Notes: a model not told the origin generated them from the sequence alone. Positions 3,185-19,845 are shown, counted from the stretch's first letter. The stretch is DNA of 64,000 nucleotides from Candidatus Aldehydirespiratoraceae bacterium (GCA_965204595.1 CBDBEW010000005.1:742565-806564); one strand, 5' to 3'. Program-made: numbers and translations.

Positions 3185-4627
3185 CTAGAGTGTTTGAGTG
3201 GTACCCATGTGTGTCTGCGGGGTCGTCGACTGGGACTGGGTTGAACTCCCTGCTCGGTTGGCCTGTGAAGTCGCAGCGGCGAAGCTGTGAAGGAACGCCG
3301 CCGCAGTGCAACGTGTGGTCTTAGTCTCCGGCAAGAATAGGGGCAAAGCACCATCTCGGCCTGCGCTCGCGGTGTCACTCGTGCTGAGAACGGTGATACC
3401 GCTCTCAGCAGCCCAACTAATCGCTTCCGCCGCGAAACTCGATGCCTTCACGTCGCCAAACACTCGCTCGTCGCTCGTCGGTCGTGGCCGCGAAGCGGCC
3501 CTCCACAGCAAGGTCACGAACTCTCCTCTGGAGATCGGCTGAGCGGGATTGAAAGTAGTTCGTGAGGTTCCGGTCGTCACACCCTGTGAGAACATCCACT
3601 GCACTGAGCGAAAGTAGTAGGAGTCCGCTGGCACGTCTCGGAACAAGATGTTGGTTTCAACGGTGGGTTCTCCGAAGTACCGCCAGAGTAGGGTCGCCGC
3701 TTGAGCACGGGTCAGTTGCGCCGTGCCGCAGAAGCGGTTCGGTCCGCATCCGTTGGTGATCCCCTCGGCGTGGAGCCAATCGACATGCTTGCGGAACTGA
3801 GAACCTAGCGTGTCACAGAACGGGTCCTCTGCTGTGGGTTGGTGGGCCGCGCAGACAATGTTAGTGACACCGATCCACACGAACTCCCAAGGTTCGGGGT
3901 TGGGTCCGGTCGGTCTGCTCCCCGCCGGGTAGCTTGGAACCCAGCCGTGAGCTTTGGCGTTGGCGAAATTGTCGGCGGACAGCCAGCGGTAGGAGGCGGT
4001 GCTTCCGAAGTCGTTGAAGTCGCCTCTCCCTTCGGCGATGTCAAGTGTGTAGCCGGTGTGGTGCCGCGAGTAGCCTGGTGGCGCGACCAGCCTCAAAGCC
4101 CCGTTGAGGGCTGCTGTCGAAGTACCCCGGTAGTGCTTGTGAAACACTCGTCGCTGCGAGGCGTGGCTCCGGTAGGAGGATCGTATAGTGATGTCCAATC
4201 CCGCTTGGTGAGCAGCGGTTTTCAACGATTCCCAACCCGCTGCCGCTTCGGGTTGCAGTCTGTGATGTCCGACTGCGACTAAGGGCCGGTTCGGCGTGGG
4301 TTGCCGTCTGTATCCGCGGCTTATCGCAGCCTGTCTGATCCTTGTGTCCGAGGCCGTGTGCGCGGTGATGGTCGGTGCCTCGGTGAGATCGGCTAATCCG
4401 TCGAGGTACGCCTTTTCGATCGCGTCGAGGAACTCATCTGGAGAGAGGACGGTTCCGGTGGCGGCTTCGATCATTGCGTCGTTGTTGGTCGCGGAAGTTG
4501 AGGCCGCTGCCTGTTGTGTCGCATGTGCGATTATTGCACAGAGCACCGCGATCGCGCAGAGAACTCGTCGTCTTTGCGAGTCTCTCAGTCTAAGTTTGGG
4601 CGGATCGTCTAGTAGCACGTGTGCCAA
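3185..4627 (-). CDS. M15B (VanY-like) D-Ala-D-Ala carboxypeptidase fused to C-terminal SLH domains
   Basis: 480-aa ORF. Motifs SSYRSHASQRRVF, PGYSRHHTGYTLDI and HGWVPSYP...EPWEF are typical of the VanY/M15B family. Three SLH-like repeats follow (HVDWLHAEGITNGC.., FRSVQWMFSQGVTTGTS.., AAEAISWAAESGIT). Confidence 0.8.
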   Translation of the reverse strand: MAHVLLDDPPKLRLRDSQRRRVLCAIAVLCAIIAHATQQAAASTSATNNDAMIEAATGTVLSPDEFLDAIEKAYLDGLADLTEAPTITAHTASDTRIRQAAISRGYRRQPTPNRPLVAVGHHRLQPEAAAGWESLKTAAHQAGLDITIRSSYRSHASQRRVFHKHYRGTSTAALNGALRLVAPPGYSRHHTGYTLDIAEGRGDFNDFGSTASYRWLSADNFANAKAHGWVPSYPAGSRPTGPNPEPWEFVWIGVTNIVCAAHQPTAEDPFCDTLGSQFRKHVDWLHAEGITNGCGPNRFCGTAQLTRAQAATLLWRYFGEPTVETNILFRDVPADSYYFRSVQWMFSQGVTTGTSRTTFNPAQPISRGEFVTLLWRAASRPRPTSDERVFGDVKASSFAAEAISWAAESGITVLSTSDTASAGRDGALPLFLPETKTTRCTAAAFLHSFAAATSQANRAGSSTQSQSTTPQTHMGTTQTL

Positions 4628-4686
4628 GGTTACTTGCTTGGTCCATCCCTATAAGGGTGCAGACGCTCAAAGTTGGTGGACTCTCC

Positions 4687-6192
4687 TTAAATTCTGTGAC
4701 TTGCTTGGTGCTTCAGCGAAGTCTCAACGCTGCTGAATGCGTTGGCAGCGTTATACACAGGCGTGTAGTCCCAAGAGTAGTGGTCGTCGATGGTCATTGC
4801 CGTGTGCAGCACGCGGCGGGTGCGTTGGGATTCCAAAACCCGTTGGTGGATGCCTTTGATGTCCCAACGCTGCGCTGTTTCAGCGGCGAAACTAGCGGAC
4901 ATCTTGGTGTGGGCTGGGTCGGCGGCGAGGTTGGTGCGTTCGAGTGGGTCGGTCTCCACATCGTAGAGCAGCGGCGGGTCGGTGTCGCAGTGGATATACT
5001 TGTATCGCCCTCGGCGAATCATGAACATCGGATGCGATGTCATCTCGCCGGTGTACTCGGCGATGGTCTCGTTGACGGGGTCGTGACCTCCGCTTGCGCT
5101 CTCCCAGAGGCTGCGCCCGTCTAGCGGCACCACTGGTTCGACCCGCCCCTTGCCGCAGTAGTCGCCTGCGATGTCGAGCAGCGTGGGCAGCAGGTCAAGC
5201 AAGGAGCAGGCGTTACCCACAGTGCGGTTAGCCACGCCAGGACCAGCGATTACCAGTGGTACCCGCAAGGACCGTTCGAAGAAGTTCATCTTGAACCACA
5301 AGCCGCGGTCACCGAGCATGTCTCCGTGGTCGCTGGTGGCGATGACTATGGTGTTGACGAGTTGGCCGGTCTCTTCGAGGACTGCGAGCATTCGTCCGAG
5401 CAGCGAGTCGAAGTAGCTCGTGTTGGCGTAGTAAGCGTGGCGTGCGTTGAGGCATTGGTCTTCGGTGTAGCCGACGGTGGCGGCGCAGATACCACGGCGG
5501 ATTCGCAGCGTGTGCGGGTCGGGCGAGTCGAGTGTGTCGTCGGGCAAGTCGATGTTGTCGTGGTCGTAGAGGTTCCACCATTCAGGGCGAGCCACATAGG
5601 GGTCGTGCGGATGAATCAGTGCCGCCGCCATAAACCAAGGTCGCTCGTCGCTGCTGCGGGCGAAGTCGTAGAGTTGGCGCGTGGCGGAGAATGCTACTTC
5701 GTTGTCGTAGGCGATATGGTCTGTTGCCAGTGCTTGACCGGCTTCTGCGAGGCTGTTCATGTTGTGGTACCACTTGTTGATATGCATGTCGGGTGCGTCC
5801 CAGTCGGGAGTCCAGGCGAAATCAGCTGGGTAGATGTCGGTGTTGAGCCGATGCGTGAAGCCGTGGAGCTGGTCTGGCCCGATGAAGTGCATCCTGCCTG
5901 CTAGCACGGTGCGGTATCCGGCGAGGTTGAGGTAGTGCGCCAGGGTCGGCACCCGTGCCGGGAACTCCGCGGCGTTGTCCCAGGCCTCTATGTCTGTGGC
6001 CCGCCGGCCTGCCAGCATAGAGAACCTCGACGGGGCGCACAGCGGGACGTGGCAGTACGCTGCGTCGAAGCGGGTCCCCCGTTCGGCGATGGCATCCATC
6101 GCCGGCGTGTGCACCAAGTGATGGCCGTAGGTGCCAGTGAAGTGCGGTGCCAGCTGGTCCGCCATCACCATCAAAATGTTGGGCTGTGCCAT
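4687..6192 (-). CDS. betC: Choline-sulfatase family sulfatase (paralogue 1)
   Basis: 501 aa. NILMVMADQL, sulfatase signature PLCAPSRFSMLAGR (C-x-P-x-R), GPDQLHGF, TDIYPADF.WTPDW, SDHGDMLGDRGLWFKMNFFE and MIRRGRYKY match the choline-sulfatase pattern along the full length. Confidence 0.8.
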   Translation of the reverse strand: MAQPNILMVMADQLAPHFTGTYGHHLVHTPAMDAIAERGTRFDAAYCHVPLCAPSRFSMLAGRRATDIEAWDNAAEFPARVPTLAHYLNLAGYRTVLAGRMHFIGPDQLHGFTHRLNTDIYPADFAWTPDWDAPDMHINKWYHNMNSLAEAGQALATDHIAYDNEVAFSATRQLYDFARSSDERPWFMAAALIHPHDPYVARPEWWNLYDHDNIDLPDDTLDSPDPHTLRIRRGICAATVGYTEDQCLNARHAYYANTSYFDSLLGRMLAVLEETGQLVNTIVIATSDHGDMLGDRGLWFKMNFFERSLRVPLVIAGPGVANRTVGNACSLLDLLPTLLDIAGDYCGKGRVEPVVPLDGRSLWESASGGHDPVNETIAEYTGEMTSHPMFMIRRGRYKYIHCDTDPPLLYDVETDPLERTNLAADPAHTKMSASFAAETAQRWDIKGIHQRVLESQRTRRVLHTAMTIDDHYSWDYTPVYNAANAFSSVETSLKHQASHRI

Positions 6193-6535
6193 AGGTCACA
6201 AGTATAGCGAACGCAGCTCGACAGCTCTCACCAACCGCTGCAAGTTCTGTGAGGTAATAACAATAAACAATTGAGCCTGCGTGTAAACGTGGGGAGCAGG
6301 GTGAGTGTGGGTTTGGCGTGTGAATGTGGGTGGAACAGACTTAGCGAATTGGTATCGATGGCGTGTGGGAATTCGATGGCATCAAGTTCAACAATTCGAA
6401 AAGTGTGCAGTGACCTTCGTGATTCTTGAGTCTAGAGTTGACAGCGTTCTGTTAGATTCGGATAGGTGTAATGCGGGGTTGCCGCACCGACGACAAAGAG
6501 CCGTCGGTGCGTGCGGTGCGTTCGGGTAGGTGGGG

Positions 6536-6940
6536 TTAGGGAGATGTGGTCGCAGCGATCGGTTCGGAGTCTATGTTTCGCCTGCCGAAAACGGCACCTT
6601 CAAGGGTGCTAATGCGCTCGCCATGTTGCATCATGTGCTGGAGTTTGTCGCCGTGTTCTTGTTGTGTCGCGGCCATTGCGGCCACGGTGACTTTCAAGGC
6701 GGTGACCTCCATGCCAAGCTTGTCAACCTTCGCTTCGAGTTTATCGATCCGGTTGGTAAGGTCGGTTTCGAGTTTATCGATCCGGTTGGTAAGGTCGGTT
6801 TCGAGTTTGTCTATTTTGGTGCCTAGGTCGTTGATGAGGTGCTTCATGCCGTCGACTAGGTGCTTCATAAAGTAGCCGAATCCTGCGAGGATGCCGGTTC
6901 CTAGTACGGTGATGATCGTTGCGATCAAGGTTATCTCCAT
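6536..6940 (-). CDS. Small membrane-anchored coiled-coil protein, paralogue 1 (two extra 11-aa repeat units)
   Basis: 134 aa. N-terminal TM helix MEITLIATIITVLGTGILAGFGYF. Then KIDKLE-TDLTNRIDKLE-TDLTNRIDKLE-AKVDKLG heptad/hendecad repeats and a conserved tail ..ERISTLEGAVFGRR... AAAGGA-type RBS upstream. No family recognised. Confidence 0.7.
   Translation of the reverse strand: MEITLIATIITVLGTGILAGFGYFMKHLVDGMKHLINDLGTKIDKLETDLTNRIDKLETDLTNRIDKLEAKVDKLGMEVTALKVTVAAMAATQQEHGDKLQHMMQHGERISTLEGAVFGRRNIDSEPIAATTSP
6735..6800. repeat. Perfect 2 x 33-bp in-frame tandem repeat inside coiled-coil gene 1
   Basis: tcgagtttatcgatccggttggtaaggtcggtt occurs at 6735-6767 and again at 6768-6800. Paralogue 2 has one diverged unit and paralogue 3 has none. 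Confidence 0.95.
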
Positions 6941-7121
6941 TGCTTATCCTTTCGTGATCCTAACACGCCTCCGCCGTGGCGGCACGATTAGGAATTGGTT
7001 TATTTTAATTTAAGATACACCAAATGTTATTAGATAACAACACACAGTTTGTTTAATCGGTGCGAAATCACTTCTCAAACGAGTTTCGAACGAGTGCATC
7101 GTGGTGGCAACGGCACAAAGT

Positions 7122-7325
7122 GCCTCTTCGCGTTTTAGGGTGGGGTGAGGATGTTGAGGAGGTTCCAGTTAGGTTTGCCGGCGTGGAGGAGTGCTCGGAT
7201 TCTGTAGATGCTGAAGTTGATGAATCGCCAAGGCTGCGCGTTTGACGCGTTTGATCAAGTTGTTGGCCGCTTCGGTGGTGGTGTTGGTGACGCGGGCGAC
7301 ATGCCAGTTGGTGATCTGAGTGAGT
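7122..7325 (-). mobile_element. ISL3-family IS remnant (3' end of transposase plus terminal repeat)
   Basis: Reverse translation gives ..ITNWHVARVTNTTTEAANNLIKRVKRAA, then after one frameshift FINFSIYRIRALLHAGKPNWNLLNILTPP* (stop at 7135-7137). This is the characteristic ISL3 transposase C-terminus. gcctcttcgcg just outside the stop resembles an ISL3 terminal repeat. Confidence 0.65.
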
Positions 7326-7330
7326 TAACG

Positions 7331-7575
7331 GTTGATCGACACGAACGTGGTGTTGGAGTTGGACGCGCCCGCTCCAGAGCCTCGCGTTGTTGTGTTTCTT
7401 CGATCCAGTGGCGACCTTTGGATTTCGGTGATCGTCATTCATGAACTGTACTGCGGTCTGAGGCAGTTTCCGTCGGGTCGTCGTCGTGACCAACTCACCG
7501 ACACCTTGTCGGTGTTTTTAGGCGAGTACGCCGATCGTATTCTCCCGGTTGGACTCAGCGAGGCTGACCGGGCTG
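7331..7575 (+). pseudogene. vapC: vapC (PIN toxin) 5' fragment, copy 3
   Basis: Translates LIDTNVVLELDAPAPEPRVVVFLRSSGDLWISVIVIHELYCGLRQFPSGRRRDQLTDTLSVFLGEYADRILPVGLSEADRA. This is collinear with VapC at 18393-18845. It lacks the first codons and the partner antitoxin (ISL3 remnant on the left). It ends abruptly where repeat unit B begins. Confidence 0.8.
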
Positions 7576-7598
7576 TAATGCGTTTGGGTAGGTGGGGG

Positions 7599-7964
7599 TT
7601 AAGGAGTTGTGGTCGCAGCGATCGGTTCGGTGTTTCGCCTGCCGAAAACGGCACCTTCAAGGGTGCTAATGCGCTCGCCATGTTGCATCATGTGCTGGAG
7701 TTTGTCGCCGTGTTCTTGTTGTGTCGCGGCCATTGCGGCCACGCTGACTTTCAAGGCGGTGACCTCCATGCCAAGCTTGTCAACCTTCGCTTCAAGTTTA
7801 TCGATCCGGGTGGTAAGCTCGGTTTCGAGTTTGTCTATTTTGGTGCCTAGGTCGTTGATGAGGTGTTTCATGCCGTCGACTAGGTGCTTCATAAAGTAGC
7901 CGAATCCTGCGAGGATGCCGGTTCCTAGTACGGTGATGATCGTTGCGATCAAGGTTATCTCCAT
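7599..7964 (-). CDS. Small membrane-anchored coiled-coil protein, paralogue 2 (one extra repeat unit)
   Basis: 121 aa. Same N-terminus and tail as 6536-6940 but only KIDKLE-TELTTRIDKLE-AKVDKLG. Confidence 0.7.
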   Translation of the reverse strand: MEITLIATIITVLGTGILAGFGYFMKHLVDGMKHLINDLGTKIDKLETELTTRIDKLEAKVDKLGMEVTALKVSVAAMAATQQEHGDKLQHMMQHGERISTLEGAVFGRRNTEPIAATTTP

Positions 7965-8213
7965 TGCTTATCCTTTCGTGATCCTAACACGCCTCCGCCG
8001 TGGCGGCACGATTAGGAATTGGTTTATTTTAATTTAAGATACACCAAATGTTATTAGATAACAACACACAGTTTGTTTATGAGGTGCGAAATCACTTCTC
8101 AAAGGAGTCTTGAACGAGTGCATCGTGGTGGCAACGGCATCAAGTTCTTTACAAGGAAGGTTCATTTTAAACTCGAACGGTGGCGTTGATGTGCTTTTGT
8201 GATCCAAACACGA

Positions 8214-9164
8214 TCAATTGCGGGCAGGTTGTTTGAACAGATTCTCGTAGTGCCAATCAATGTGTTCGTTGGCGGGTGGTGGGTAGCCGCGTTGGGGGGG
8301 CCGCATCGGCTCGCGTGACAGCGCGAGTAGTGGACGTGACGATGCTTCTTCGAACACGTTGAGGTGTTGACTCACCAGAATTTCGCGCTCGCCGCCGCGC
8401 ACGCCGAGTCCGAGCGCTCCACTATCGAAAAGTCGGTGATGTAATGCACACAGCGCCAAGCCGTTCTCTATCACGCTAGGGCCTTGTTTTGAATGCATGC
8501 GCAAGTGGGCGGCATCAACACTCACCGAACTTCCCCCCAAGAGTGCTCCAAAATCGCAAAATGAACACTTGTATTCGTAGGCCAACAGAATCTTTTCGCG
8601 GAACCGAGAATCACGTCGAGGCGTTTTGATCTCGGTTAGCAATAGCCCAAGTCTGCTCAGGACATCATCGTGTACCGACGCCGGGAACTCAGACTCGAGA
8701 AGAAAGTGAACGATTCGATCACGCTGCCTTGTGTCCTGTAGTGCTGCCACGAACTTGGCCGATACTCGCCCAGTCGCCTCTCGACGTAAGAAGCTGACGG
8801 TTTCACGTTTGGGTGCAGACATGGACGGTTTCAGAGGTTCCGACATCGCAAAGATGTCGGAACCGTTTTGATCCTTTACCTGCCAAAGCTCGGGCCTGCT
8901 ACCCAAGTAAACGAATGGGTGTTCGGGCTTCGGCGACGTATTCCCGACCCGGTGCTCTTCGAGCAGTCGTCTTAGGTCAGACTCAGCGTCTGCGAACCGG
9001 ACCTCAGGACTCTCTCCATTGCTCAGCCGCGCGATCAACCAAAGCAACAGCAGCGGCTTGTATGGCGCACGTTTGCCCATTGCGCTTCTGTGTTGCGGAA
9101 TCGATCGGATCACATCGATCCACGCTTCCGCACAGTTGGCATCGGCTGTCATGCCAAGCATCAT
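8214..9164 (-). CDS. HNH (HNH_2-type) endonuclease, ScoMcrA/SprMcrA-like putative phosphorothioate-DNA-binding type IV restriction enzyme, paralogue 1
   Basis: 316 aa. C-terminal CSFCDF....VDAAHLRMHSKQGPSVIENGLALCALHHRLFDSGALGL is a classic HNH_2 signature. The N-terminal GKRAPYKPLLLLWLIARL ... PEHPFVYLGS.PELWQV matches my recollection of the sulfur-binding-domain-HNH family (..HKPLLLL.., ..YPF..L..DG.W). Domain identity is from memory, not computed. Confidence 0.65.
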   Translation of the reverse strand: MMLGMTADANCAEAWIDVIRSIPQHRSAMGKRAPYKPLLLLWLIARLSNGESPEVRFADAESDLRRLLEEHRVGNTSPKPEHPFVYLGSRPELWQVKDQNGSDIFAMSEPLKPSMSAPKRETVSFLRREATGRVSAKFVAALQDTRQRDRIVHFLLESEFPASVHDDVLSRLGLLLTEIKTPRRDSRFREKILLAYEYKCSFCDFGALLGGSSVSVDAAHLRMHSKQGPSVIENGLALCALHHRLFDSGALGLGVRGGEREILVSQHLNVFEEASSRPLLALSREPMRPPQRGYPPPANEHIDWHYENLFKQPARN

Positions 9165-9618
9165 ACACGCTGCTGAGCAAGGTGTAGAATAGCCATGTCC
9201 ATTATCGGTGAGGAGTGCTTTGAGATGAGATCGGGTAGGAGCAGTTTTGGACGCGCTCCCAGATTGGGATCGACCCGGTCTATCGTGCGATGCCAGCGGT
9301 CAGGGCTTTCAAACCTTGCCGCATTGGTCTCGTCGGGTTCAAACTACACGAGTGGCGCGTGATGATCGAGCACTCTATGACCCGGCGTGACAGCGAGTCG
9401 AGACGATCCGCTCTATCCGAGGTGATCTGCCTGCCGGAGTGGAATGCAGCGTACCACTGTCTGGGGATACAAGTTCCGCCGGAAATCGGGGGAGTCGCGC
9501 AGTTTTTGCCACCACTCCTTGAAACCGCTGAAGGTCGTATCTACGGTGATGCACCGACTCGAATATTCTGGTATAGTTCAATCTAGACCATCAATCGTGT
9601 CATAGGAGGCGATGGAAC

Positions 9619-9897
9619 ATGGTTGAAGTGCTCTCAGACGAGATTTGGACAGTAGCGGCGGCGAAGGCGAGGCTGTCGGAGGTGCTGCGGTTGGCTGAGG
9701 AGGAAGGTCCGCAGCGAATTGGGAAGCGTAAGCGGTTCGTGGTCGTGTCTGAGCACGCGTGGAACGCAAAGACGATTCGCTGCAAGCACATGGGGCAGTG
9801 GTTGGTGGAGAAGATGCCGAGAGGTGCGGATCTCGCGTTGCCCGACCGCAACGAACCAGATCGGGAGACATCCTTCGCTGACTTGGAAGATGCGTGA
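9619..9897 (+). CDS. Phd/YefM-type antitoxin (partner of the decayed vapC, copy A)
   Basis: 92 aa. MVEVLSDEIWTVAAAKARLSEVLRLAEEEGPQRIGKRKRFVVVSEHAW is typical of prevent-host-death family antitoxins. Its stop overlaps the GTG of the downstream PIN gene (GTGA). Confidence 0.8.
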   Translation: MVEVLSDEIWTVAAAKARLSEVLRLAEEEGPQRIGKRKRFVVVSEHAWNAKTIRCKHMGQWLVEKMPRGADLALPDRNEPDRETSFADLEDA

Positions 9898-10325
9898 CTG
9901 GGTGGCTGATCGACACGAACGTGGTGTCGGAGTTGGCCGCGCCCGCTTCAGAGCCTCGCGTTGTCGCGTTTCTTTGATCCAGTGGCGACCTTTGGATTTC
10001 GGTGATCGTCATCCATGAACTGCACTGCGGTCTGAGGTAGCTTCCGTCGGGTCGTCGTCGTGACCAACTCACCGACATCTTGTCGGTGTTTTTAGGCGAG
10101 TACGCCGATCGTATTCTCCCGATTGCACTCAGCGAGGCTGAACGGGCTGCCGATCTGCGCGCCCTGGCACGCAGATCGGGTCGCACCGTGAACCTTGCTG
10201 ACGTTCTGATTGCAGGCACTGCTTTGGTTCACGGCCTGGGTATTGCGTCTCGAAACACGTCTGACTTTGCCGGTCACGGCATCGCACTGACCAACCCTTG
10301 GGATTCCCCGACGGTGTTGATGTAG
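9894..10325 (+). pseudogene. vapC: vapC (PIN toxin) copy A, inactivated by two in-frame nonsense codons
   Basis: In frame from GTG 9894: VTGWLIDTNVVSEL..FL*SSGDLW..GLR*LPSGRRRDQL... TGA at 9975-9977 and TAG at 10038-10040 stand where intact copy B has CGA (Arg) and CAG (Gln). Confidence 0.85.
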
Positions 10326-10823
10326 GTGATGTCACCAACCCAGACACTGTTGGCGTGTCCGACACCGAAGTCGCGGCGCACCGAGAATGGTTTCTTTGCG
10401 ATGCACAGAACCAGAGAGCAGGAACTGCGCCAACGAAGTATGGGTTGTGTCGCGGATTGGGTCGCGCAGAAGGCGTGGACGATAGAGCACTATACGAGCC
10501 TGCACGCAGTTGCAGGGAACTTGTAATGGCATTCTGTCAGAGTCTAATCTTTTCGTGACTAGATTGGGACAGGAGTGGTGGGTGTCTGTGGTTGAAAGCT
10601 TAGAGATCGCTTTTGGTGATCCCGTCTTGAAGTTTGTGACACGCGTGGCACGTCAGAGAGGCCTTTGTAGACGACTTCCACGAGAACAACGACACACAAC
10701 ACGTCGCTGTTGAAGTCGCTCACTCGCTAGGGGAGTCTCAACTGGGGTCGTCCATATCAATCGGTTCTGTATGCCCAGCGTTAAACGACCGCAGTTGCAA
10801 GGCCGGGTTATCTGTAAATGTAG

Positions 10824-10849
10824 ACAGCCCCGGCGTGTGCCGGGGCTGT
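10824..10849. terminator. GC-rich hairpin (11-bp stem, GTGT loop)
   Basis: acagccccggc-gtgt-gccggggctgt. No T-tract follows, so function as an intrinsic terminator is uncertain. Confidence 0.35.
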
Positions 10850-10930
10850 TGGCCCGAGGCTACTCACCCCGGGGGCGTAACAAAATAATATCACACACAA
10901 CCGTAGATCGGTCGACTATTTTGATGAACT

Positions 10931-11554
10931 ATGCAAATTGAACGGTTAATCGCTTACGTTGATGGCTTCAATCTCTATTATGGCCTGCGGACAGCACGCC
11001 TAAACACTTCACGCTGGCTTGATATTCACGGCTTGTGCTTGTCGTTGTTGAATTCCACACAACAACTTGATTTGGTTCGCTACTTCACCACGAGAGTCAA
11101 AGCCGATCCCAAAGCCGCCGATCGCCAGGCGATCTTCATCGACGCATTGTTGGCACGTGGGGGGATTGAGATCGATTACGGCCACTTTCTCTCGAAGAGA
11201 ACGAAATGTCATGAATGTGGTGTTGTCGTTAGGAAGCACGAAGAGAAAAAGACTGATGTCAACATCGCGGTCCGCCTTATTGAAGATGCTTATGACGACC
11301 GTTTCGACACAGCTCTGCTAATCTCAGGTGACAGTGACCTCGTCCCCCTTGTTGAATCGCTGCGAACTCGATTCTCAAGCAAGCAGATCGTCGTGGCGGC
11401 ACCGCCGAACCGTTGGTCCACGCAACTCGCACAGGCTGCGAATGCGGCGTTCCAGATATCGCCTCTTACAATCCGATCAAATCGATTGCCCGACCCTGTG
11501 AAGACTTCTGATGGAGTGATGTTGCGCGCTCCAGTGGGCTGGTTACCGCGATGA
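10931..11554 (+). CDS. NYN (LabA/DUF88-like, PIN-fold) domain protein
   Basis: 207 aa. AYVDGFNLYYG... KKTDVNIAVRLIEDAYDDRFDTALLISGDSDLVPLVESLR is the NYN-domain acidic-residue pattern. It lies in a lower-GC segment. Confidence 0.75.
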   Translation: MQIERLIAYVDGFNLYYGLRTARLNTSRWLDIHGLCLSLLNSTQQLDLVRYFTTRVKADPKAADRQAIFIDALLARGGIEIDYGHFLSKRTKCHECGVVVRKHEEKKTDVNIAVRLIEDAYDDRFDTALLISGDSDLVPLVESLRTRFSSKQIVVAAPPNRWSTQLAQAANAAFQISPLTIRSNRLPDPVKTSDGVMLRAPVGWLPR

Positions 11555-11850
11555 TAGTGGACAGTTGTCCGATTTGCTCGGAGAACACCCTCTCTTGTCG
11601 AGGTGCAGTTATTGAAGGAAGGCATGGTCTAAACCATCAAGAGATTTGAGCTTTATTGTGAATGTAGATGGGGGAGAGAGTTAAGCAGGGGTTGCGTCAC
11701 GGCGACATAGAGCCGTCGGTGTATTGGCATTGATGAACACAAGATGTTCGTGGCGAGCTGGTAGTTACTCGGACTCTCGAGGCTCTAGTGAGACTTCGAT
11801 AGAGCCTGCACTACAAGCGTTTGTGGACGCACCATTCGAAAAGACTGAAT

Positions 11851-12273
11851 TTAGATTGCGTGTGCTTGTTCGGACAACTCGAGTTTCAATGCAACGCCTC
11901 GTTCCTTCGCGTCTCTCATTACAGATACGAAATCACGCCACAGCTCGGTCTCGCGATCATTTGGATTCAACAGGACGTGATCAACCCGGACCTCTTTGTT
12001 CGACAGCAACACTGAGATCCCGCCGAAGTGGTCTGCGTCCGCGTGGGGCAGCAGTACAGTGTCGATCTGCATGATGCCCTGCGCGGCGAGGAATCGAGAA
12101 GGCGTGTCACCGCGGCACCCATCGATCGCGTACACAGTAGGTGGGTCTGCGACTACAGTCGCGGCACCATCAGCGCGGAGACTGTGTACCGCGCTTGAGA
12201 CGCGGAGGACTCCGGCGGCGGACTCGAAGCAGGGTCGCAGAAGAAGTTGCCGAGTCCTGTGGTGTCGTTGCAA
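11851..12273 (-). CDS. Short metallo-beta-lactamase-fold protein (possibly a fragment)
   Basis: ..YAIDGCRGDTPSRFLAAQGIMQIDTVLLPHADADHFGGISVLL contains the MBL H.D.DH.GG motif. At about 140 aa it is much shorter than typical MBL proteins. The start is uncertain, and the IS3 element sits about 80 bp upstream. Confidence 0.4.
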   Translation of the reverse strand: MQRHHRTRQLLLRPCFESAAGVLRVSSAVHSLRADGAATVVADPPTVYAIDGCRGDTPSRFLAAQGIMQIDTVLLPHADADHFGGISVLLSNKEVRVDHVLLNPNDRETELWRDFVSVMRDAKERGVALKLELSEQAHAI

Positions 12274-12355
12274 ACCCCGAAGGTGCTGTGGGCAGGCGAA
12301 ACGCTCACCGCTGGGCCGCTACCGGCCCTTGACACAGAGGGCTCCTCCATAATGA

Positions 12356-13681
12356 TGAATCACACCGGGTTTGGTAGAGACTTGGTTTTGTGTGTGTCTG
12401 TTGGTTTGTGGTTGGGTTTTGATTGTAGTGGGTGTTTTGTGTTCGGTGGGGGTGGTGTATCGGCCACCTAGGAGTTGGCTGTGGCTGCGTCGGTGGTTGT
12501 ACCAGTCGACGTATTCGAGGGTGGCGAACTCGACTTCGCGTAGGTTTTGCCAGGGTTCGTGGGGGTAGATGAGTTCTGATTTGTATAGGCCGTTGAAGCT
12601 TCAGGTCATGGCGTTGTCGTAGCTGTCGCCCACTGAGCCGACCGAGGCGACGATGATGTTGTTGTCGTCGAGTCTGGTGCTGTAGCGGATGGACAGGTAT
12701 TGCGATCCGCGGTCGCTGTGGTGAACCGCTCGGTCGGTTCTGCGGCCGTCGCGACGGCGTGTGGCGATGGCCATGGTCTGACGCGTCGAGGGCCAGTTTG
12801 GTGTGTGGTGTGTGTGATGCCCGCCAGCGGAGAACACGACGCGAGTAGGTGTCGATGACAAACGCCAGATACACCCAACCGCAGCCGGTTCGCACCCGAC
12901 TGAGATCGGCGAGCCGCAACCGGTTTGGGGCGTCGACACCGAAGTGGCGGTTCACCAGGTCGCCGGGTGTGTCGCTGCCGACGGGTGGCGTGGTGGTGAC
13001 CGGTTCTTTGCCTCGGCGGGTGCCGACTAGCCCCATCTTAGACATCAAAGGTTCAACGGTGCAATCCGCCACCACCACGCCGGCGACGCGGTTGAGGTGG
13101 TCCCACATTTTCGCGGCAACATAGGCACTGTAGTTGGCTTCATAAACTCGCGCGATCAACAAAGCGAGCTGCGCGTCGCGCAAAGCACACGCCGACGGCG
13201 CCCGCTTGGTGAACGCGTAGTAGGTGGACGGGGCGATCTGTCGCCGTGCTCTGTGAGCACCGCGCAAAACAGGATCGAAGTCGAACCGGTGCCGGTAAGC
13301 GTCGATGAACGACACTACAACCTTGACTGACCGTCGAGCTCCACCCCGACCAAAGCCGAAGCCGCGGCCAAAATCTCGTTCGCTCGGCGCAGCTCACGGT
13401 TCTCGCGTTCAAGATCCTTACCACGCTCACGCTCGACGCTAGTCACCCCCACACGCACCGTTGTCGATCTCAAAACGATGCACCCACTTGCGCACCGACT
13501 CCACAGACAGACCCAGCTTCAAAGCAACCGAACAAATCGCGTCGGCGAGATCCATAAAGCCTCTCATTATCAAGCACCATCCTCACCGCCCGCTCACAAA
13601 GCTCAGCCAGATATCTTCTGTTGTTTGTAATAACTCCATCCTCTCAAGGAAAAAAGTCTCCACCAAACCCGGGGTGATTCA
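12356..13681 (-). mobile_element. Degenerate IS3-family insertion sequence (1326 bp)
   Basis: Terminal inverted repeats TGAATCACACCGGGTTTGGTAGAGAC (12356-12381) and reverse complement TGAATCACCCCGGGTTTGGTGGAGAC (ending at 13681). OrfA-like ..AELCERAVRMVLDNERLYGS.. and OrfB-like ..WVYLAFVIDTYSRRV.., ..HHSDRGSQYLSIRY..SVGSVGDSYDNAMT*SFNGLYKSELI.. lie in several frames with an in-frame TGA. The transposase is therefore non-functional as sequenced. Confidence 0.85.
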
Positions 13682-13775
13682 ATGCTTTCGGGTAGGTGGG
13701 GTTAGGGAGATGTGGTCGCAGCGATCGGTTCGGAGTCTATGTTTCGCCTGCCGAAAACGGCACCTTCAAGGGTGC

Positions 13776-14039
13776 TTATGCGCTCGCCATGTTGATCATG
13801 TGCTGGAGTTTGTCGCCGTGTTCTTGTTGTGTCGCGGCCATTGCGGCCACGCTGACTTTCAAAGTGCTGACCTCAATACCAAGCTTGTCAACCTTCTCTT
13901 CGAGTTTGTCTATTTTGGTGCCTAGGTCGTTGATGAGGTGCTTCATGCCGTCGACTAGGTGCTTCATAAAGTAGCCGAATCCTGCGAGTATGCCGGTTCC
14001 TAGTACGGTGATGATCGTTGCGATCAAGGTTATCTCCAT
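13776..14039 (-). CDS. Small membrane-anchored coiled-coil protein, paralogue 3 (no extra repeat unit, frameshifted C-terminus)
   Basis: 87 aa. Identical N-terminus, KIDKLE-EKVDKLG only. A 1-nt deletion relative to copies 1 and 2 (catgatcaacatgg versus catgatgcaacatgg on the coding strand) changes ..QHMMQHGERISTLEG.. to ..QHMINMASA*. The lost tail is still readable in the next frame. Confidence 0.6.
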   Translation of the reverse strand: MEITLIATIITVLGTGILAGFGYFMKHLVDGMKHLINDLGTKIDKLEEKVDKLGIEVSTLKVSVAAMAATQQEHGDKLQHMINMASA

Positions 14040-14288
14040 TGTTTATCCTTTCGTGATCTTAACACGCCTCCGCCGTGGCGGCACGATTTGGAATTGGTTT
14101 ATTTTAATTTAGGATACACCAAATGTTATTAGATAACAACACAAAGTTTGTTTAATCGGTGCGAAACCACTTCTCAAACGAGTCTCCAACGAGTGTATCG
14201 TTGCGGCAACCGCACGAAGTATTTTTCAAGGCAGTTCAACTGTATCCTCAAACAGTGGCGTTGATGTACTTTTGTGATCCAAACACGA

Positions 14289-15239
14289 TCAATGTCGTGC
14301 TGGGTGTTTGAAAAGGTTTTTGAAGTGCCAATCAATGTGCTTGGTGGCGGGGGGTGAATAGCCGCGCTGAGGTAGCCGCATGGGTTGGTTTGACAGCGCG
14401 AGAAGTGGACGCGAAGATGCTTGTTCAAAAATGTTTAGGTGTTGACTCACTAATATTTTGGGTCGATCCTCTTGTACTGTAAGCCCGATTGCGCCTCTGT
14501 CGAACAACTGATGATGTAACGCACATAGTGCTACGCCGTTTTCGATCACACTGGGGCCTTGCATTTCCCGTGTGCGAACGTGTGCTGCGGCTACACTCAC
14601 GGGACGGTCTCCTAGATAGGCTCCAAAGTCACAGAATGAACATCGGTATTCGTATGCCAGCAGAACGATTTTGTGAAACGATTCGTCTAACTCAAGCGAT
14701 TTCGTATCAGGTAGGCTGAGTCCAACTCTACCCAACAATTCTTCGTGTCTTGATTCTGGGAACTCCGACTCCAACAGGAAAGTGACGATTTGGTTACGTT
14801 GTATTGGGTCTAGGATCACTTCGGTGAACTCTTCAGAGACCCTGCCGGTTGCCTGTTGTCGTAAGAAGGTCACATTCTCACGTGCTGGGGTTGAGCTTGC
14901 AGAACTGAGAGGTGCTGACATCGCAAAGATGTTTCTCCCTCGAGTGTCTGTTACTTGCCAGAGCTTTGGTTTGCTTGCCAAGTAGACGAATGGATGCTCG
15001 GGCTTTGGACTTGAGTTTCCGACTTTAAATGTATTGAGCAAATCTCTTAGGTCAGTTTCGGCATCTTCAAACCGGAACTCAGGGTCGTGTCCATTGGTCA
15101 AACGACCGATCAACCACAACAGCAGTAGTAGTTTGTAAGGTGCGCGCTTGCCCGACGCATCCGTGTAAACCGTAATTGATCGGATCACGTCTATCCACAC
15201 GTCCGCACTGTTGGCATCGGCTGTCACGCCAATCATCAT
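14289..15239 (-). CDS. HNH (HNH_2-type) endonuclease, putative PT-DNA-binding type IV restriction enzyme, paralogue 2
   Basis: The track ORF (to 15575) has a 112-aa extension with no counterpart in paralogue 1. MMIGVTADANSADVWIDVIRSI.. at 15239 aligns with the paralogue 1 start MMLGMTADANCAEAWIDVIRSI... Same GKRAPYK(L/P)LLLLWLIGRL, PEHPFVYL and CSFCDF...AAHVR...ENGVALCALHHQLFDRGAIGL motifs. Confidence 0.65.
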   Translation of the reverse strand: MMIGVTADANSADVWIDVIRSITVYTDASGKRAPYKLLLLLWLIGRLTNGHDPEFRFEDAETDLRDLLNTFKVGNSSPKPEHPFVYLASKPKLWQVTDTRGRNIFAMSAPLSSASSTPARENVTFLRQQATGRVSEEFTEVILDPIQRNQIVTFLLESEFPESRHEELLGRVGLSLPDTKSLELDESFHKIVLLAYEYRCSFCDFGAYLGDRPVSVAAAHVRTREMQGPSVIENGVALCALHHQLFDRGAIGLTVQEDRPKILVSQHLNIFEQASSRPLLALSNQPMRLPQRGYSPPATKHIDWHFKNLFKHPARH

Positions 15240-15404
15240 AGTCGCCATCGACGGTGGCATGCACATGCTAGCTCCATTATCCACGGGGAGTGCCTTGAAA
15301 TCGGGTAGGAGCAGTTTTGGGCGCGCTCTCAAATCAGGACCGTCTCCGTCTATCGTGCGATGCCAGCAGGCAGGGCTTTCAAGCTTCGCCGCATGGAGTG
15401 GAGT

Positions 15405-15650
15405 TACACCGGTTTCGCCGATGGCGTGGTGTTCAATGAGTCGGTGCTGTTCGGCGACTGGCTTGAGGCGCATGGCATGTCGGTTGCGGATTTGGTGGGT
15501 TTGGCAACTGATTATTGTGTGCGTGTTACGGTTCTCGAAGCGGTGGGTTTTCGCATGAAGGTCTTGTGGGGGCATTGCGCGGGGTAGGCTGTTGAGAGTT
15601 CCGAGGCTGCGCTCACCGAACTCGCCGCCGCTGGTGTCACATTGAAGTAG
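15405..15650 (+). pseudogene. pncA: Nicotinamidase/pyrazinamidase (isochorismatase family) 3' fragment with in-frame stop
   Basis: YTGFADGVVFNESVLFGDWLEAHGMSVADLVGLATDYCVRVTVLEAVGFRMKVLWGHCAG*AVESSEAALTELAAAGVTLK* is collinear with the C-terminal half of PncA proteins (..YSGF...L..WL...GV..VDVVGIATD.CV......A...G....VL.DLTAGV....T..AL.EM..A.V.L). Internal TAG at 15585-15587. The N-terminal half is missing. Confidence 0.7.
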
Positions 15651-16035
15651 TTAGACTATTGACATAATCTTTTGAGTATATTGTGTTGTTACGTGTTACG
15701 TTTCCTTTTGGGTCTGGCTAGGTTTGATGTATGGATGCCGAAACGATAGCGCAACTGGTCTCGTTGATCTTAGCTGTGTTGGGTATTGTGACGCGTCCCG
15801 TATCACGGATTTCGTGACACCACATATGTATACGCGACGTCTTTGCGTGTCGATGTCAGAGCACCGGCTACTTGGCCTTGTCGGGGAGGCCGGAGCGGGT
15901 GGTGACCGCCTCACCGGCGATCTGCGCCTGCTTCGGCCTCGTCCGCAGTCTTGGCGGGGAGAGTTCGAGGTGTACCGGTACGGGTGGGCCTCGGCATCTT
16001 TCTTTCAGACTTGGGCCGTTCAGACGACGACCGGG

Positions 16036-17577
16036 TCAGGTCGGCTCGGGGAAGCGGAGACGTGGGCCGGCTTCGGCCCAGTCCATGTGGTCGCGGATGT
16101 ATTCGTTCGATCCGTCGCGCACGGGTGTGTAGTCCCAGGAGTAGTGGCCGTTGATGGTCATGGCGGTGTGGAGCATCCGTCGGCTTCGCTGTGATTCCAG
16201 GACCCGTCGGCGGATGTCGTCGCTGTTCCAACGCTGCGCGGTCTCTGCGGCGAAGTTCGCGGACAGCTCGGCGTGGGCGGGGTCCTCTGCGAGGTTGGTG
16301 CGTTCCAGCGGGTCGGCTTCGACGTCGTAGAGCAGGGCTGGGTCGCTGTCGCAGTGGATGTACTTGTGCCGGCCCCGGCGGATCATGAACATCGGGTGTG
16401 CCGTCATCTCGCCGGTGTACTCGGCGATGGTCTCGTCTACGGGGTCGTGTCCTCCGGTCGCGCTCTCCCAAAGGCTGCGCCCCGCCGGCGGCACGACCGG
16501 TTCGATGCGTCCGCCGCGGGTGCCGTTGCCGTTGCCGCCGGTGCTGTCTCCTGCGATGTCGAGCATGGTGGGCAGCAGGTCGAGCAGTGAGCAGACGTTG
16601 CTGACGCTGCGGTCGGCCACACCGGGCCCGGCCACGATCAACGGCACCCGCAGTGACCGTTCGAAGAAGTTCATCTTGAACCACAGGCCGCGGTCTCCGA
16701 GCATGTCGCCGTGGTCGCTGGTGGCGATCACGATGGTGTTGTCGAGTTGGCCGGTTTCTTCGAGGACTTTGATCATCCGCCCGAGCAGGGAGTCGAAGTA
16801 GCTGGTGTTGGCGTAGTAGGCGTGGCGGGCGTTGCGGCACTGGTCTTCGGTGTAGCCGATGGTGTCGGCGCAGATGCCGTGGCGGATTCTCAGCGTGTGG
16901 GGGTCGGGCGATTCGAGTGTGTCGTCGGGCAGGTCGATGTCGTCGTGGTTATAGAGGTCCCACCATTCGGGGCGGGCCACGTAGGGGTCGTGGGGGTGGA
17001 TCAGCGCAGCCGCCATGAACCAGGGTCGTTCGTCGGCGTCTCGGGCGAAGTCGTAGAGCTGGCGTGTGGTGGAGAACCCGACTTCGTCGTCGTAGTCGAT
17101 CTGGTAGGTGGCCAGGGCCTGACCGGCCTGTGAGAGGCTGTCCATGTTGTGGTACCACTTGTCGATCCGCTCGTCGGGCGCGTCCCAGTCGGGTGTCCAG
17201 GAGAAGTCGGCGGGGTAGATGTCGGTGTTGAGCCGGCGGGTGAACCCGTGGAGCTGGTCGGGTCCCACGAAGTGCATCTTGCCGGTCAGCACGGTGCGGT
17301 AACCGGCGAGGTTGAGGTAGTGGGCCATGGTCGGGACCCGCGCCGGGAACTCGGCCGCGTTGTCCCAAGCGTCGATGGCGGTGGCCTGCCGGCTTGCCAG
17401 CATCGAGAACCTCGACGGGGCACACAGCGGGACGTGACAGTACGCCGCGTCGAAGCGCGTGCCCCGCTCGGCGAGGGCGTCCATCGCCGGCGTGCGAACC
17501 AGCCGATGGCCGTAAGCACCAGTGAAATGCGGCGCCAACTGATCCGCCATCACCATCAGAATGTTGGGTTGTCTCAC
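16036..17577 (-). CDS. betC: Choline-sulfatase family sulfatase (paralogue 2)
   Basis: 513 aa, collinear and highly similar by eye to 4687-6192. Same CAPSR signature. It has a small G/N-rich insertion (GDSTGGNGNGTRGGRIEP versus GDYCGKGRVEP) and a divergent C-terminus. Confidence 0.8.
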   Translation of the reverse strand: MRQPNILMVMADQLAPHFTGAYGHRLVRTPAMDALAERGTRFDAAYCHVPLCAPSRFSMLASRQATAIDAWDNAAEFPARVPTMAHYLNLAGYRTVLTGKMHFVGPDQLHGFTRRLNTDIYPADFSWTPDWDAPDERIDKWYHNMDSLSQAGQALATYQIDYDDEVGFSTTRQLYDFARDADERPWFMAAALIHPHDPYVARPEWWDLYNHDDIDLPDDTLESPDPHTLRIRHGICADTIGYTEDQCRNARHAYYANTSYFDSLLGRMIKVLEETGQLDNTIVIATSDHGDMLGDRGLWFKMNFFERSLRVPLIVAGPGVADRSVSNVCSLLDLLPTMLDIAGDSTGGNGNGTRGGRIEPVVPPAGRSLWESATGGHDPVDETIAEYTGEMTAHPMFMIRRGRHKYIHCDSDPALLYDVEADPLERTNLAEDPAHAELSANFAAETAQRWNSDDIRRRVLESQRSRRMLHTAMTINGHYSWDYTPVRDGSNEYIRDHMDWAEAGPRLRFPEPT

Positions 17578-17711
17578 AGGTGCGATACTACTAGCCGAAG
17601 CCTTGTCGGGAGCGTCCTAACGGGCCGATTAGACGCTTGTGGACCATCGAGCCACTCACGTCCTACAAGGCAAATCCTGAAATTGCATTGTAGACGCTTG
17701 CCAGTTATGCT

Positions 17712-17990
17712 TTGGCAATGTCTGCTAGTGAGTCGTCTGATCGTGGAACGGTTGCGATCGTGGATGTCCGAGTCTCTGAAAGAGGCCAGATGAGCCTTCC
17801 AGCGGCCGCCCGACACCGCTGGGGCCTCACCGACGGTGGGACAGTCGGCTGCCTCGACCTGGGAGACGGGATGCTGCTCATCCCCAAGAACCTGGACGCC
17901 TTTCGTCGGGAGCTCTTGGAAGCTGTTTCTGAAGAGGACTGGGACGAAGCCCGAGCTGGGTTCGGAGACCCGGATCTGGCCACAGAGTGA
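17712..17990 (+). CDS. AbrB/MazE/SpoVT-family antitoxin-like protein (no adjacent toxin)
   Basis: 92 aa. VSERGQMSLPAAARHRWGLTDGGTVGCLDLGDGMLLIPK is a SpoVT-AbrB looped-hinge-helix pattern. No toxin ORF follows before the vapBC copy B module. Confidence 0.65.
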   Translation: MAMSASESSDRGTVAIVDVRVSERGQMSLPAAARHRWGLTDGGTVGCLDLGDGMLLIPKNLDAFRRELLEAVSEEDWDEARAGFGDPDLATE

Positions 17991-18117
17991 CAAGCGGAGT
18001 GACGCAGTTAGTCGACGACCGCATCCTGTCATCTCCCAATGCTAAATCTGATATAGTCCAATTTAGATGATATAGTCTAATCTAGACCATTATCCACGAC
18101 ATGGGAGGCAATGGAAT

Positions 18118-18396
18118 ATGGCTGAAGTGCTCTCAGACGAGATTTGGACAATCGCGGCGGCGAAGGCGAGGCTGTCGGAGGTGCTACGGTTGGCTGAGGA
18201 GGAAGGTCCGCAGCGAATTGGGAAGCGTAAGCGGTTCGTGGTCGTGCCTGAGCACGCGTGGAACGCAAAGACGATCCGCCGCGAGCACATGGGGCAGTGG
18301 TTGGTGGAGAATATGCCGAGAAGTGTGGAGCTCGAGCTACCAGACCGCAACGAACCAGATCGGGAGACATCCTTTGTAGCCTTGGAAGATGTGTGA
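18118..18396 (+). CDS. Phd/YefM-type antitoxin (copy B)
   Basis: 92 aa, near-identical to 9619-9897. Stop TGA 18394-18396 overlaps the vapC GTG. Confidence 0.8.
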   Translation: MAEVLSDEIWTIAAAKARLSEVLRLAEEEGPQRIGKRKRFVVVPEHAWNAKTIRREHMGQWLVENMPRSVELELPDRNEPDRETSFVALEDV

Positions 18397-18845
18397 CTGG
18401 GTGGCTGGTCGACACTAATGTGGTGTCGGAGTTGGTTGCGCCGGCACCAGAGCCTCGTGTTGTCGCGTTTTTGCGATCCAGTGGTGACCTTTGGATGTCG
18501 GTGATCGTCATCCATGAACTGCACTGCGGTCTGAGGCAGCTTCCGGTAGGTCGTCGCCGTGACCAACTCACCGACACCTTGTCGGTGTTCGTTGGTGAGT
18601 ACGCCGGTCGTATTCTCCCGGTCAGTCTCAGCGTCGCCGACCGGGCCGCTGATCTGCGCGCCCAGGCACGCAGATCGGGTCGCACCGTGAACCTCGCTGA
18701 CGCTCTGATTGCAGGCACCGCCCTAGTTCACAGACTGGGGGTTGCGACTCGAAACACATCTGACTTTGAGGATCACGGCATTGCGCTTACCAACCCTTGG
18801 CATTCACCTCCAGAACTGACTGGCCACTCAGAAAGCGGGGTTTGA
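18393..18845 (+). CDS. vapC: VapC PIN-domain toxin (copy B, intact)
   Basis: GTG at 18393 (GTGA overlap). VTGWLVDTNVVSEL...IVIHELHCGL...NLADALIAGTALVHRLGVATRNTSDF shows the PIN acidic residues D..E..D..(N)..D. The track ORF start at 18258 is an upstream extension inside the antitoxin gene. Confidence 0.8.
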   Translation: MTGWLVDTNVVSELVAPAPEPRVVAFLRSSGDLWMSVIVIHELHCGLRQLPVGRRRDQLTDTLSVFVGEYAGRILPVSLSVADRAADLRAQARRSGRTVNLADALIAGTALVHRLGVATRNTSDFEDHGIALTNPWHSPPELTGHSESGV

Positions 18846-18896
18846 ACTGAGTTGTTGTTGGTATGCGTCAACTGAATCGGCGCAACACAAGTTTCA

Positions 18897-19844: not shown

Positions 19845-19845
19845 C

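Follow-up and report, generated by a model that had tools for sequence, protein, structure and literature searches.

We have analysed a 64,000-nucleotide (nt) stretch of DNA from Candidatus Aldehydirespiratoraceae bacterium (GCA_965204595.1 CBDBEW010000005.1:742565-806564), hereafter the window, in which genes for HNH nucleases with a sulfur-binding domain (SBD), together with a small gene for a membrane coiled-coil (CC) protein, are repeated downstream of an ssp operon for phosphorothioate (PT) modification of DNA. An earlier annotation made from the sequence alone (the first-pass annotation) had read these repeats as threefold copying of the 3' end of that operon, in the form of an ancestral SNF2-HNH-CC module. 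We conclude that the region is probably a rearranged and partly decayed defence island in an Acidimicrobiia genome, and that the rearrangement was of ordinary kinds and not a copying of an SNF2-HNH-CC operon end. The repeated unit would consist of a stand-alone SBD-HNH gene, a non-coding upstream leader of ~160 nt and a separately promoted membrane CC gene, and two full units, a solo CC module and an older third HNH paralogue would all have arisen by ordinary DNA rearrangement. The SBD-HNH enzyme is predicted to be a type IV restriction enzyme of the SprMcrA/ScoMcrA type, in which a winged-helix SBD would read PT in DNA and the HNH domain would cut. The closest relatives of the region are from metagenome-assembled Acidimicrobiaceae and Candidatus Poriferisodalis, and the island contains a number of broken genes, namely vapC-1, HNH-3, CC-c, pncA, insertion sequence (IS) remnants and a split sspC.

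Self-BLASTN of positions 4000-23000 together with a repeat finder showed that two units, 7577-9324 and 13681-15394, are collinear with 76% identity over 1769 nt, and that a module at 6517-7121, which holds the CC gene and its leader alone, is 91% identical to 7579-8145 and 95% identical to 13683-14220. To this extent the multiplied HNH, leader and coiled-coil unit described previously is borne out, and the ATGA overlap at 9164-9161, the open frame fused upstream of HNH-2 (428 codons, 14289-15575) and the codon strings quoted for the tails and the SNF2 end are likewise present in the sequence. However, the account of three copies overlooked further repeats, as self-BLASTN also detects a duplicated sulfatase (4756-6196 versus 16120-17581, 83%), a duplicated vapBC (9569-10309 versus 18068-18808, 88%) and, together with the repeat finder, a 5' piece of vapC (7330-7575, 94% identical to 9904-10149). 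A third HNH paralogue aligns over 8213-8807 versus 18896-19490 at 73% identity, with 67-73% continuing as far as 19759 (self-BLASTN). HNH-1 and HNH-2 encode 316 amino acids (aa) each. HNH-3 is not intact, as its 5' end is broken. The HNH, CC and SNF2 genes are all on the minus strand downstream of the ssp operon, and the right ends of the two units are sharp, with similarity absent past 9324/15394 (1368 of 2000 shuffles score as high or higher).

The leader upstream of the HNH genes

The copying of an operon end hinges on the ~160 nt upstream of HNH-1 and HNH-2 (tail-1 and tail-2), which had been taken for the dead 3' end of an SNF2 gene, so that an SNF2-HNH-CC module was copied three times and the copy adjacent to the present SNF2 gene lost its CC gene. 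When the tails were aligned locally with the SNF2 3' end as nucleotides, 642 of 1000 and 411 of 1000 dinucleotide shuffles scored as well or better. In the protein frame that had been proposed the tails score 34 and 31, where shuffles average 25 (standard deviation 4.6); these values are reached by 28/500 and 53/500 shuffles before any correction for 12 frames. Of 1368 segments of 90 aa from unrelated parts of the window, translated in six frames, 3.3% and 8.3% score as well against the SNF2 tail. A profile built from 13 SNF2 C-termini of related loci gave no match in the tails (174/500 and 500/500 shuffles as good), global identity is 38-43%, and MAFFT does not return the proposed alignment. 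Similarity at the level of shuffled controls, which the first-pass annotation had itself named as the outcome that would tell against an SNF2 remnant, is thus what was found. The SNF2 proteins of relatives stop 12-20 residues past an L(I/V)xA(L/M) motif, for example with '...HRPNTVQQLLTP' in locus L007 and '...HDRQLAADLLH' in locus L018. They end at about the KLLQPD of the window protein, whose open reading frame (ORF) continues for 48 codons to the HNH-3 start, and the KLLQPD stretch is therefore an unconserved extreme C-terminus.

Some observations do favour the SNF2-HNH-CC model. HNH-3 directly follows SNF2, an SBD-HNH gene lies 80 nt past the orthologous SNF2 gene in L018, the tails and the SNF2 end have in common a short motif, KLL(L/Q)PD with PD(L/F) ahead of it, and the ATGA overlap hints at past translational coupling. 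Against this, the distance between the KLL motif and the HNH start codon is about 65-85 nt in copies 1 and 2 and about 140-160 nt at HNH-3, copy 2 beyond 15394 is antisense to pncA and not to SNF2, and a neutral remnant co-duplicated with HNH cores whose synonymous divergence (dS) is saturated could not have remained 84-85% identical. Nor is there a third-position excess between the tails in the proposed frame, where the 15 differences between tail-1 and tail-2 fall 7/4/4 at codon positions 1/2/3, with a ratio of nonsynonymous to synonymous divergence (dN/dS) of 0.64. Finally, SNF2 is found upstream of HNH in 0 of 12 loci (L003-L015) with HNH relatives of 53-77% aa identity. We regard the model as largely refuted and very unlikely to be correct, and because the SNF2 remnant is unsupported, so is the ancestral SNF2-HNH-CC module. 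With it goes the placement of the small membrane protein in an ancestral SNF2-HNH PT-defence operon; what the window documents instead is mosaic evolution of paralogues, with ancient nuclease cores between young homogenised flanks.

The alternative source named in the first-pass annotation, a pncA (nicotinamidase/isochorismatase) remnant on the opposite strand, holds up in part, as such a remnant starts where unit 2 ends on its right and accounts for the open frame there, but it does not match the body of the leader. A profile made from 15 homologues matches the remnant at profile positions 97-186 with E = 1.8e-20, residues 101-150 of Mycobacterium tuberculosis PncA (PDB 3PL1) match it with E = 3e-5, and Pfam PF00857 does so with E = 0.006, which is under the curated cutoff; the homologues came from an exhaustive protein search, and a word-index search gave no candidates. 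The codons of the remnant are in register with those of the open frame on the minus strand, and the 112-codon extension said to be fused to HNH-2 is therefore an antisense shadow ORF of pncA. Antisense shadow ORFs are frequent in GC-rich DNA. We also considered whether the whole upstream leader could be the decayed middle of pncA (codons ~50-96, plus strand), the HNH-CC pair having been joined to pncA by insertion or fusion and some of that gene having been copied along. In keeping with this, the start of the remnant, at 15378, falls within the 17 nt that end the shared leader and keeps the codon phase, PncA residues 101-150 come straight after, one in-frame stop is common to both copies in the plus frame, and in that frame the tail differences show a slight third-position excess (4/4/7) with a dN/dS of 0.29 versus 0.64 on the other strand. 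Yet there are only 15 differences and the codon-position signal is not significant; moreover, on the leader body the sub-profile for the WPxHC...K region does no better than on shuffles (354/500 and 412/500), the 5' half of pncA is found nowhere in the window, and the copy 1 flank past 9324 is not pncA. Consequently, we consider a pncA origin of the whole leader unlikely.

Other searches for a source of the leader were equally without result. The leader body (~125 nt) has no match in Pfam, Rfam or related loci, and comparison of the tails and all inter-repeat gaps with 15 related loci by BLASTN and TBLASTX left the tails unmatched, though it brought out NYN and amidohydrolase scars downstream of sulfatase-2. 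At permissive thresholds Pfam gave no match for the translated tails or for 9325-9568, 6305-6529, 10298-10558, 11724-12074 and 15696-15914, and Rfam at E <= 1 across 6000-20500 gave only a weak ALIL match within the IS3 element, with the leaders empty. The Rieske oxygenase gene that precedes the closest HNH homologue (L008) was tried as a source of the tail and gave no tblastn match, and an assignment of the tail to a TaqI_C-type methylase fragment was dropped as Pfam gave no support. Additionally, the leader contains a 13-codon upstream ORF, at 9201-9164, 15276-15237 and L016 ~1466-1505, that opens with a conserved ATG (GATAATGGA) and closes at the ATGA shared with the HNH start codon. It is of equal length in copy 1, copy 2 and the L016 locus, yet the peptides are unrelated, so that it could be either a coupling device or chance.

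Mosaic units and the origin of the copies

The HNH cores of the window paralogues are 64-71% identical in aa sequence. For HNH-1, identity is 79% to P0002, which comes from a different sample, and 92.5% to the L016 orthologue. Among the paralogues dS ranges from 1.7 to saturated and dN/dS is 0.10-0.15, and the cores are therefore ancient paralogues under purifying selection. In contrast, dS between CC-a and CC-b is 0.06, and within the window the CC modules share 94-97.5% identity, versus 90-92% with their positional orthologues in L016, which is a signature of concerted evolution. The upstream leaders are 84-85% identical between copies, with a similar level for leader-1 versus its L016 orthologue. 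A sliding window across the two units follows this pattern, with the CC gene and its leader mostly at 97-98% identity (less where repeat number differs), 80% falling to 72% at the HNH 3' end, 55-68% in most of the HNH core, a return to 80% at the HNH 5' end and 85% in the upstream leader. With old HNH cores between far younger flanks, the units are thus mosaics, which points to gene conversion of the flanks or to exchange of the HNH core for a diverged allele in a recently duplicated unit.

The two copies of the vapC 5' end are 2574 nt apart, and the copy at 7317-7575 immediately adjoins the CC-b module at its 3' end, a junction of the kind that tandem duplication of 7577-10149 would create. 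Such a 2.57-kb duplication, with both endpoints at hairpin bases, would have given an upstream copy of this stretch, from which insertion of an ISL3 element and deletion would then have stripped the HNH gene, the leader and vapB, leaving the CC gene on its own. The remnant at 7122-7329 is one that we take to be of the ISL3 family from the C-terminal motif of that family in its translation. The lengths fit the tandem model, as 605 + 195 + 259 = 1059 nt equals the observed spacing. Thus, we infer that the solo CC copy arose by tandem duplication followed by deletion at the ISL3 site. The IS3-family element at 12356-13681 meets unit 2 at the corresponding CC boundary. It has no target-site duplication, its far flank is unrelated and homology is not resumed across the element, and these features suggest that it produced an IS-mediated rearrangement next to unit 2. 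The region resembles known cases from bacterial genomic islands, where tandem or segmental duplication is accompanied by concerted evolution (gene conversion) and by deletion through IS elements, in having direct repeats of a flanking gene fragment at the duplication joint, breakpoints at hairpins with IS remnants at junctions, and paralogous flanks that are closer to each other than to their orthologues. It differs in that several breakpoints recur within ~25 nt of the CC stop codon.

In a different explanation, a discrete mobile cassette, consisting of the 1.75-kb leader-HNH-CC unit or of the CC module by itself, uses hairpins as insertion sites and has entered vapC and pncA. The three CC 3' boundaries in the window agree within ~2 nt and two junctions in L016 lie 7-20 nt inside them, with five different flanks. 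Unit ends are sharp in two separate contexts, and the junctions truncate host genes, pncA at ~residue 97 and vapC at ~residue 82. A five-copy tandem CC array exists in locus L017, a 5-nt terminal inverted repeat (ATGCG...CGCAT) occurs at the unit ends, and HNH nucleases are known to drive homing in other systems. However, the inverted repeat is not significant, the unit encodes the HNH and CC ORFs only with no recombinase or transposase, and no target-site duplications are present at the junctions (no search for attC sites was made). Furthermore, tandem duplication fully accounts for the vapC junction, and the HNH cores are much too diverged for recent transposition of one element. A mobile cassette therefore seems improbable to us. 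A broader version, in which SBD-HNH and CC form a two-gene PT-sensing cassette that is duplicated and moved as a whole at hairpins and acts as an exchangeable accessory of an Ssp-linked restriction module (455-aa protein, GIY-YIG, DGQHR and SNF2), with the PT writer switched by a poly-C tract in sspC, is more doubtful still.

Several points weigh against the reading of the region as an island shaped by ordinary rearrangement. The recurrent CC 3' boundary is one; breakage at hairpins is a plausible cause, and a dedicated mobility mechanism is the alternative. Some of the frameshifts may be assembly errors if the assembly was made from long reads, and the body of the leader (~9165-9307 and 15240-15377) could be a gene remnant decayed past recognition. 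Locus L018 establishes that an operonic link of SNF2 and SBD-HNH exists somewhere. Lastly, with these data a history of gene conversion in the flanks looks the same as one in which a foreign allele replaced the HNH core.

SBD-HNH nucleases, coiled-coil genes and related loci

HNH-1, HNH-2 and HNH-3 are by sequence members of the SBD-HNH family of PT-DNA-binding restriction endonucleases and are SprMcrA-like. They score 210.4, 199.6 and 194.1 bits (the last for the HNH-3 ORF) against NCBIfam NF045808, 'phosphorothioated DNA-binding restriction endonuclease', for which the curated cutoff is 180 bits. All three match PF13391 HNH_2 (E = 5e-7, 1e-5 and 4e-7) and carry the motif CSFCDF...AAH...ENG..LC..HH, zinc-binding cysteines included. 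The SprMcrA SBD structures 7CC9/7CCD/7CCJ match the N-terminal ~100 residues (residues 8-101, E = 3e-8, phmmer against PDB), and PF26340 DNA-SBD_ScoMcrA is recorded together with PF13391 for the window's own proteins and for all database relatives. The latter are from metagenome-assembled genomes of Acidimicrobiaceae and Candidatus Poriferisodalis as well as metagenome contigs. No record was found by an identical-sequence look-up with HNH-1, and a scan of genome contigs with the same protein found two distant loci only, at 30-35% identity, which were uninformative on gene context.

The sulfur cavity of SprMcrA is formed by Y31, Q32, Y78, P79 and A82 (PMC7470945), where HNH-1 has Y, K, H, P and Y in a phmmer alignment. 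Lysine is the usual residue of most homologues at the Q32 position (PMC6224610). With such a cavity PT binding by HNH-1 is plausible. In common with SprMcrA and ScoMcrA, all three window proteins combine a winged-helix SBD at the N terminus with an HNH_2 nuclease domain at the C terminus, and HNH-1 keeps the cavity proline and first tyrosine and has a lysine as in most homologues (PMC6224610, PMC7470945). The window proteins differ from ScoMcrA in lacking its SRA domain, from SprMcrA in two of five cavity residues (His for Tyr78 and Tyr for Ala82), and from both in that three paralogues occur in one island adjoining the host's PT-writing ssp operon. By homology only, HNH-1 and HNH-2 would be active restriction enzymes against foreign PT-modified DNA. 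In HNH-3 both ATG codons are altered (to AAG and TTG), a TGG codon now reads TAG at 19805-19803, and two or more frameshifts precede the GTG at 19724 where the longest ORF begins, an ORF that is without the Y/K segment of the sulfur cavity. From this damage we infer that HNH-3, which adjoins the host's own ssp PT-modification operon, has been inactivated at its 5' end.

In the 12 loci with HNH relatives the HNH gene is part of a variable island that has a glyoxalase gene on one side and a sulfatase-NYN-TauD block on the other. Upstream, the HNH gene is preceded by genes for a Rieske oxygenase (L008 and L012), by XdhC (L014), by a GmrSD_N protein and then a small 50-aa ORF (L003), or by a divergent and unrelated coiled-coil gene with a transmembrane (TM) helix (L005-7, L009-11 and L013). 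The close relative L016 has the order CC, vapB fragment, leader, HNH, CC, and both CC positions are therefore older than the split of the two lineages. In the distant ssp locus L018 (4694-7469) the SBD-HNH gene that follows the SNF2 orthologue is 32% identical to HNH-1 and represents the sole other such adjacency found; because of it, the position of HNH-3 after SNF2 may be a genuine, if occasional, operon arrangement.

The CC protein has an N-terminal TM helix and a C-terminal motif that is conserved, together with 11-residue repeats (KIDKLETDLTNR) whose number varies. Searches with it against Pfam and PHROGs gave just generic coiled-coil or spanin-like matches, all below cutoffs. The family has 35 members, and those few with a source name are from metagenome-assembled Acidimicrobiaceae genomes. 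CC-c is an ORF at 13776-14039 that is frameshifted near its 3' end, with homology extending to about 13705. The CC gene is probably transcribed from its own promoter, because a promoter-like site (ATAACA-17-TAAAAT) is present in the AT-rich leader upstream of CC-a and CC-b. In locus L017 (8105-10844) there are five tandem CC paralogues, each with a ~175-nt leader and differing mainly in the number of TKIDKLDEKVN repeats, and an SBD-HNH gene is absent within 10 kb of this array; the CC family therefore multiplies on its own. Given this array and the confinement of the family to one lineage, the link of the CC gene to the PT system that had been proposed is weak. Separately, a different and divergent small coiled-coil gene is found beside SBD-HNH in more distant relatives (L005 7216-7758, L006 7267-7758, L007 7288-7758, L009 6308-6820 and L013 6257-6757). 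Its protein has a C-terminal TM helix and a number of GEVKEVR units that varies between strains. Two unrelated families of membrane coiled-coil proteins therefore adjoin orthologous nucleases.

The ssp operon and other features of the window

The operon comprises sspA, sspB, a split sspC and sspD, followed by genes for an unknown 455-aa protein, a GIY-YIG protein, a DndB-like DGQHR protein and SNF2. The assignment to SspABCD rests on the presence in one operon of a cysteine desulfurase (SspA; Aminotran_5, E = 7e-71), a DUF4007 protein (SspB), an ATPase (SspC) and a PAPS reductase-like protein (SspD), of which PADLOC matches SspB at E = 1e-98, the N- and C-terminal halves of SspC at 1e-168 and 2e-141, and SspD at 2e-107. 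The sspC gene (25728-29373, minus strand) is split into overlapping ORFs of 614 and 697 aa at a run of 18 C (27705-27722), which encodes poly-proline in the linker between the two halves and which at 17 or 20 C would restore one ORF. Either the homopolymer was misassembled or the run is a slipped-strand switch that turns PT modification on and off; a switch, if true, would be of note in a genome with three homologues of PT-dependent nucleases. The combination of these homologues with a PT-writing Ssp operon raises the question of how self-restriction is avoided, for which differing sequence specificity, inactivation of the operon-adjacent copy or an off-state of sspC are possible answers.

The module that follows sspD (19846-24899) is distinct from the known partners of SspABCD. 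GIY-YIG, DGQHR and SNF2 genes also occur next to sspC/sspD in at least 11 metagenomic loci (L018-L031), with the 455-aa protein matched in L018 only. PADLOC assigns the DGQHR protein to DndB and SNF2 to ZorD/DpdE/DrmD-type helicases, with the 455-aa and GIY-YIG proteins unmatched, and no SspE or SspFGH partner was found among the four downstream proteins by PADLOC or domain content. In the literature searched we found no description of this module, and it may merit separate study. As in SspABCD-SspE and SspABCD-SspFGH systems (PMC8092258), where SspF carries a Walker A motif and SspH is similar to FtsK, sspA, sspB, sspC and sspD are in the usual order with defence-type genes downstream. The window differs from these systems in the identity of its four downstream genes and in the split of sspC at the C run. 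Reader-HNH genes with an SBD/wHTH are encoded immediately downstream of Dnd PT-modification genes (PMC10853773), and HNH-3 and the L018 HNH gene are likewise at the 3' end of a PT-modification neighbourhood. In contrast to the Dnd-linked arrangement, the writers here are SspABCD and not DndABCDE, and HNH-3 follows the SNF2 gene of the module described above; the Dnd-linked version also has an SRA domain.

The coordinates of the features discussed above are collected in Table 1.

Table 1. Features of the repeat region, in positions of the window
Feature	Position	Strand	Remarks
Choline-sulfatase paralogue 1	4687-6192	-	83% nt identity to sulfatase-2
Hairpin	6481-6514	-	-16 kcal/mol, z = -3.2; immediately past the CC module 3' boundary
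Solo CC module	6517-7121	-	CC-a gene 6536-6940 (134 aa) and 180-nt AT-rich leader with promoter-like site
ISL3-family transposase C-terminal remnant (presumed), frameshifted	7122-7329	-	where an upstream tandem copy would hold HNH, tail and vapB
vapC 5' fragment (codons 1 to ~82)	7317-7575	+	92-94% identical to 9891-10149; novel joint of the inferred tandem duplication
Unit 1	7577-9324	-	CC-b gene 7599-7964; CC promoter/leader 7965-8213; HNH-1 8214-9164 (316 aa); upstream leader (tail-1) 9165-9324
vapBC-1	9569-10325	+	vapB 9619-9897 intact; vapC 9894-10325 with two in-frame stops
Palindromic hairpin in vapC	10150-10179	+	-17.1 kcal/mol, z = -2.5; immediately after breakpoint 10149
IS3-family element	12356-13681	-	28-nt terminal inverted repeats; broken transposase; abuts the left end of unit 2
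Unit 2	13683-15394	-	CC-c; leader; HNH-2 14289-15239 (316 aa), ORF open as far as 15575; upstream leader (tail-2) 15240-15394
pncA (nicotinamidase/isochorismatase) 3'-half remnant	15378-15647	+	profile positions 97-186; starts at the right edge of unit 2
Choline-sulfatase paralogue 2, syntenic copy	16036-17577	-	NYN and amidohydrolase scars downstream
vapBC-2	18068-18845	+	intact; convergent with HNH-3
HNH-3	18897-19847	-	SBD-HNH paralogue directly after SNF2; 5' ~125 nt decayed
SNF2 helicase	19846-21570	-	last conserved gene of the ssp-linked module; HNH-3 directly follows

Downstream of sulfatase-2 there are two scars, the 3' end of an amidohydrolase gene at ~15855-15930 (93% to L012) and the 3' end of an NYN gene at ~15950-16021 (75% to L009-11), which mark a lost syntenic NYN-TauD-amidohydrolase block. 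The interval between units 1 and 2 contains a seemingly intact NYN-domain gene (10931-11554, plus strand) and a metallo-beta-lactamase-fold fragment (11851-12273, minus strand). Elsewhere in the window a tandem repeat of ~80 nt is present at 51400-51552, and an inverted pair of 160 nt with 78% identity is present at 52420-52581 and 55587-55742.

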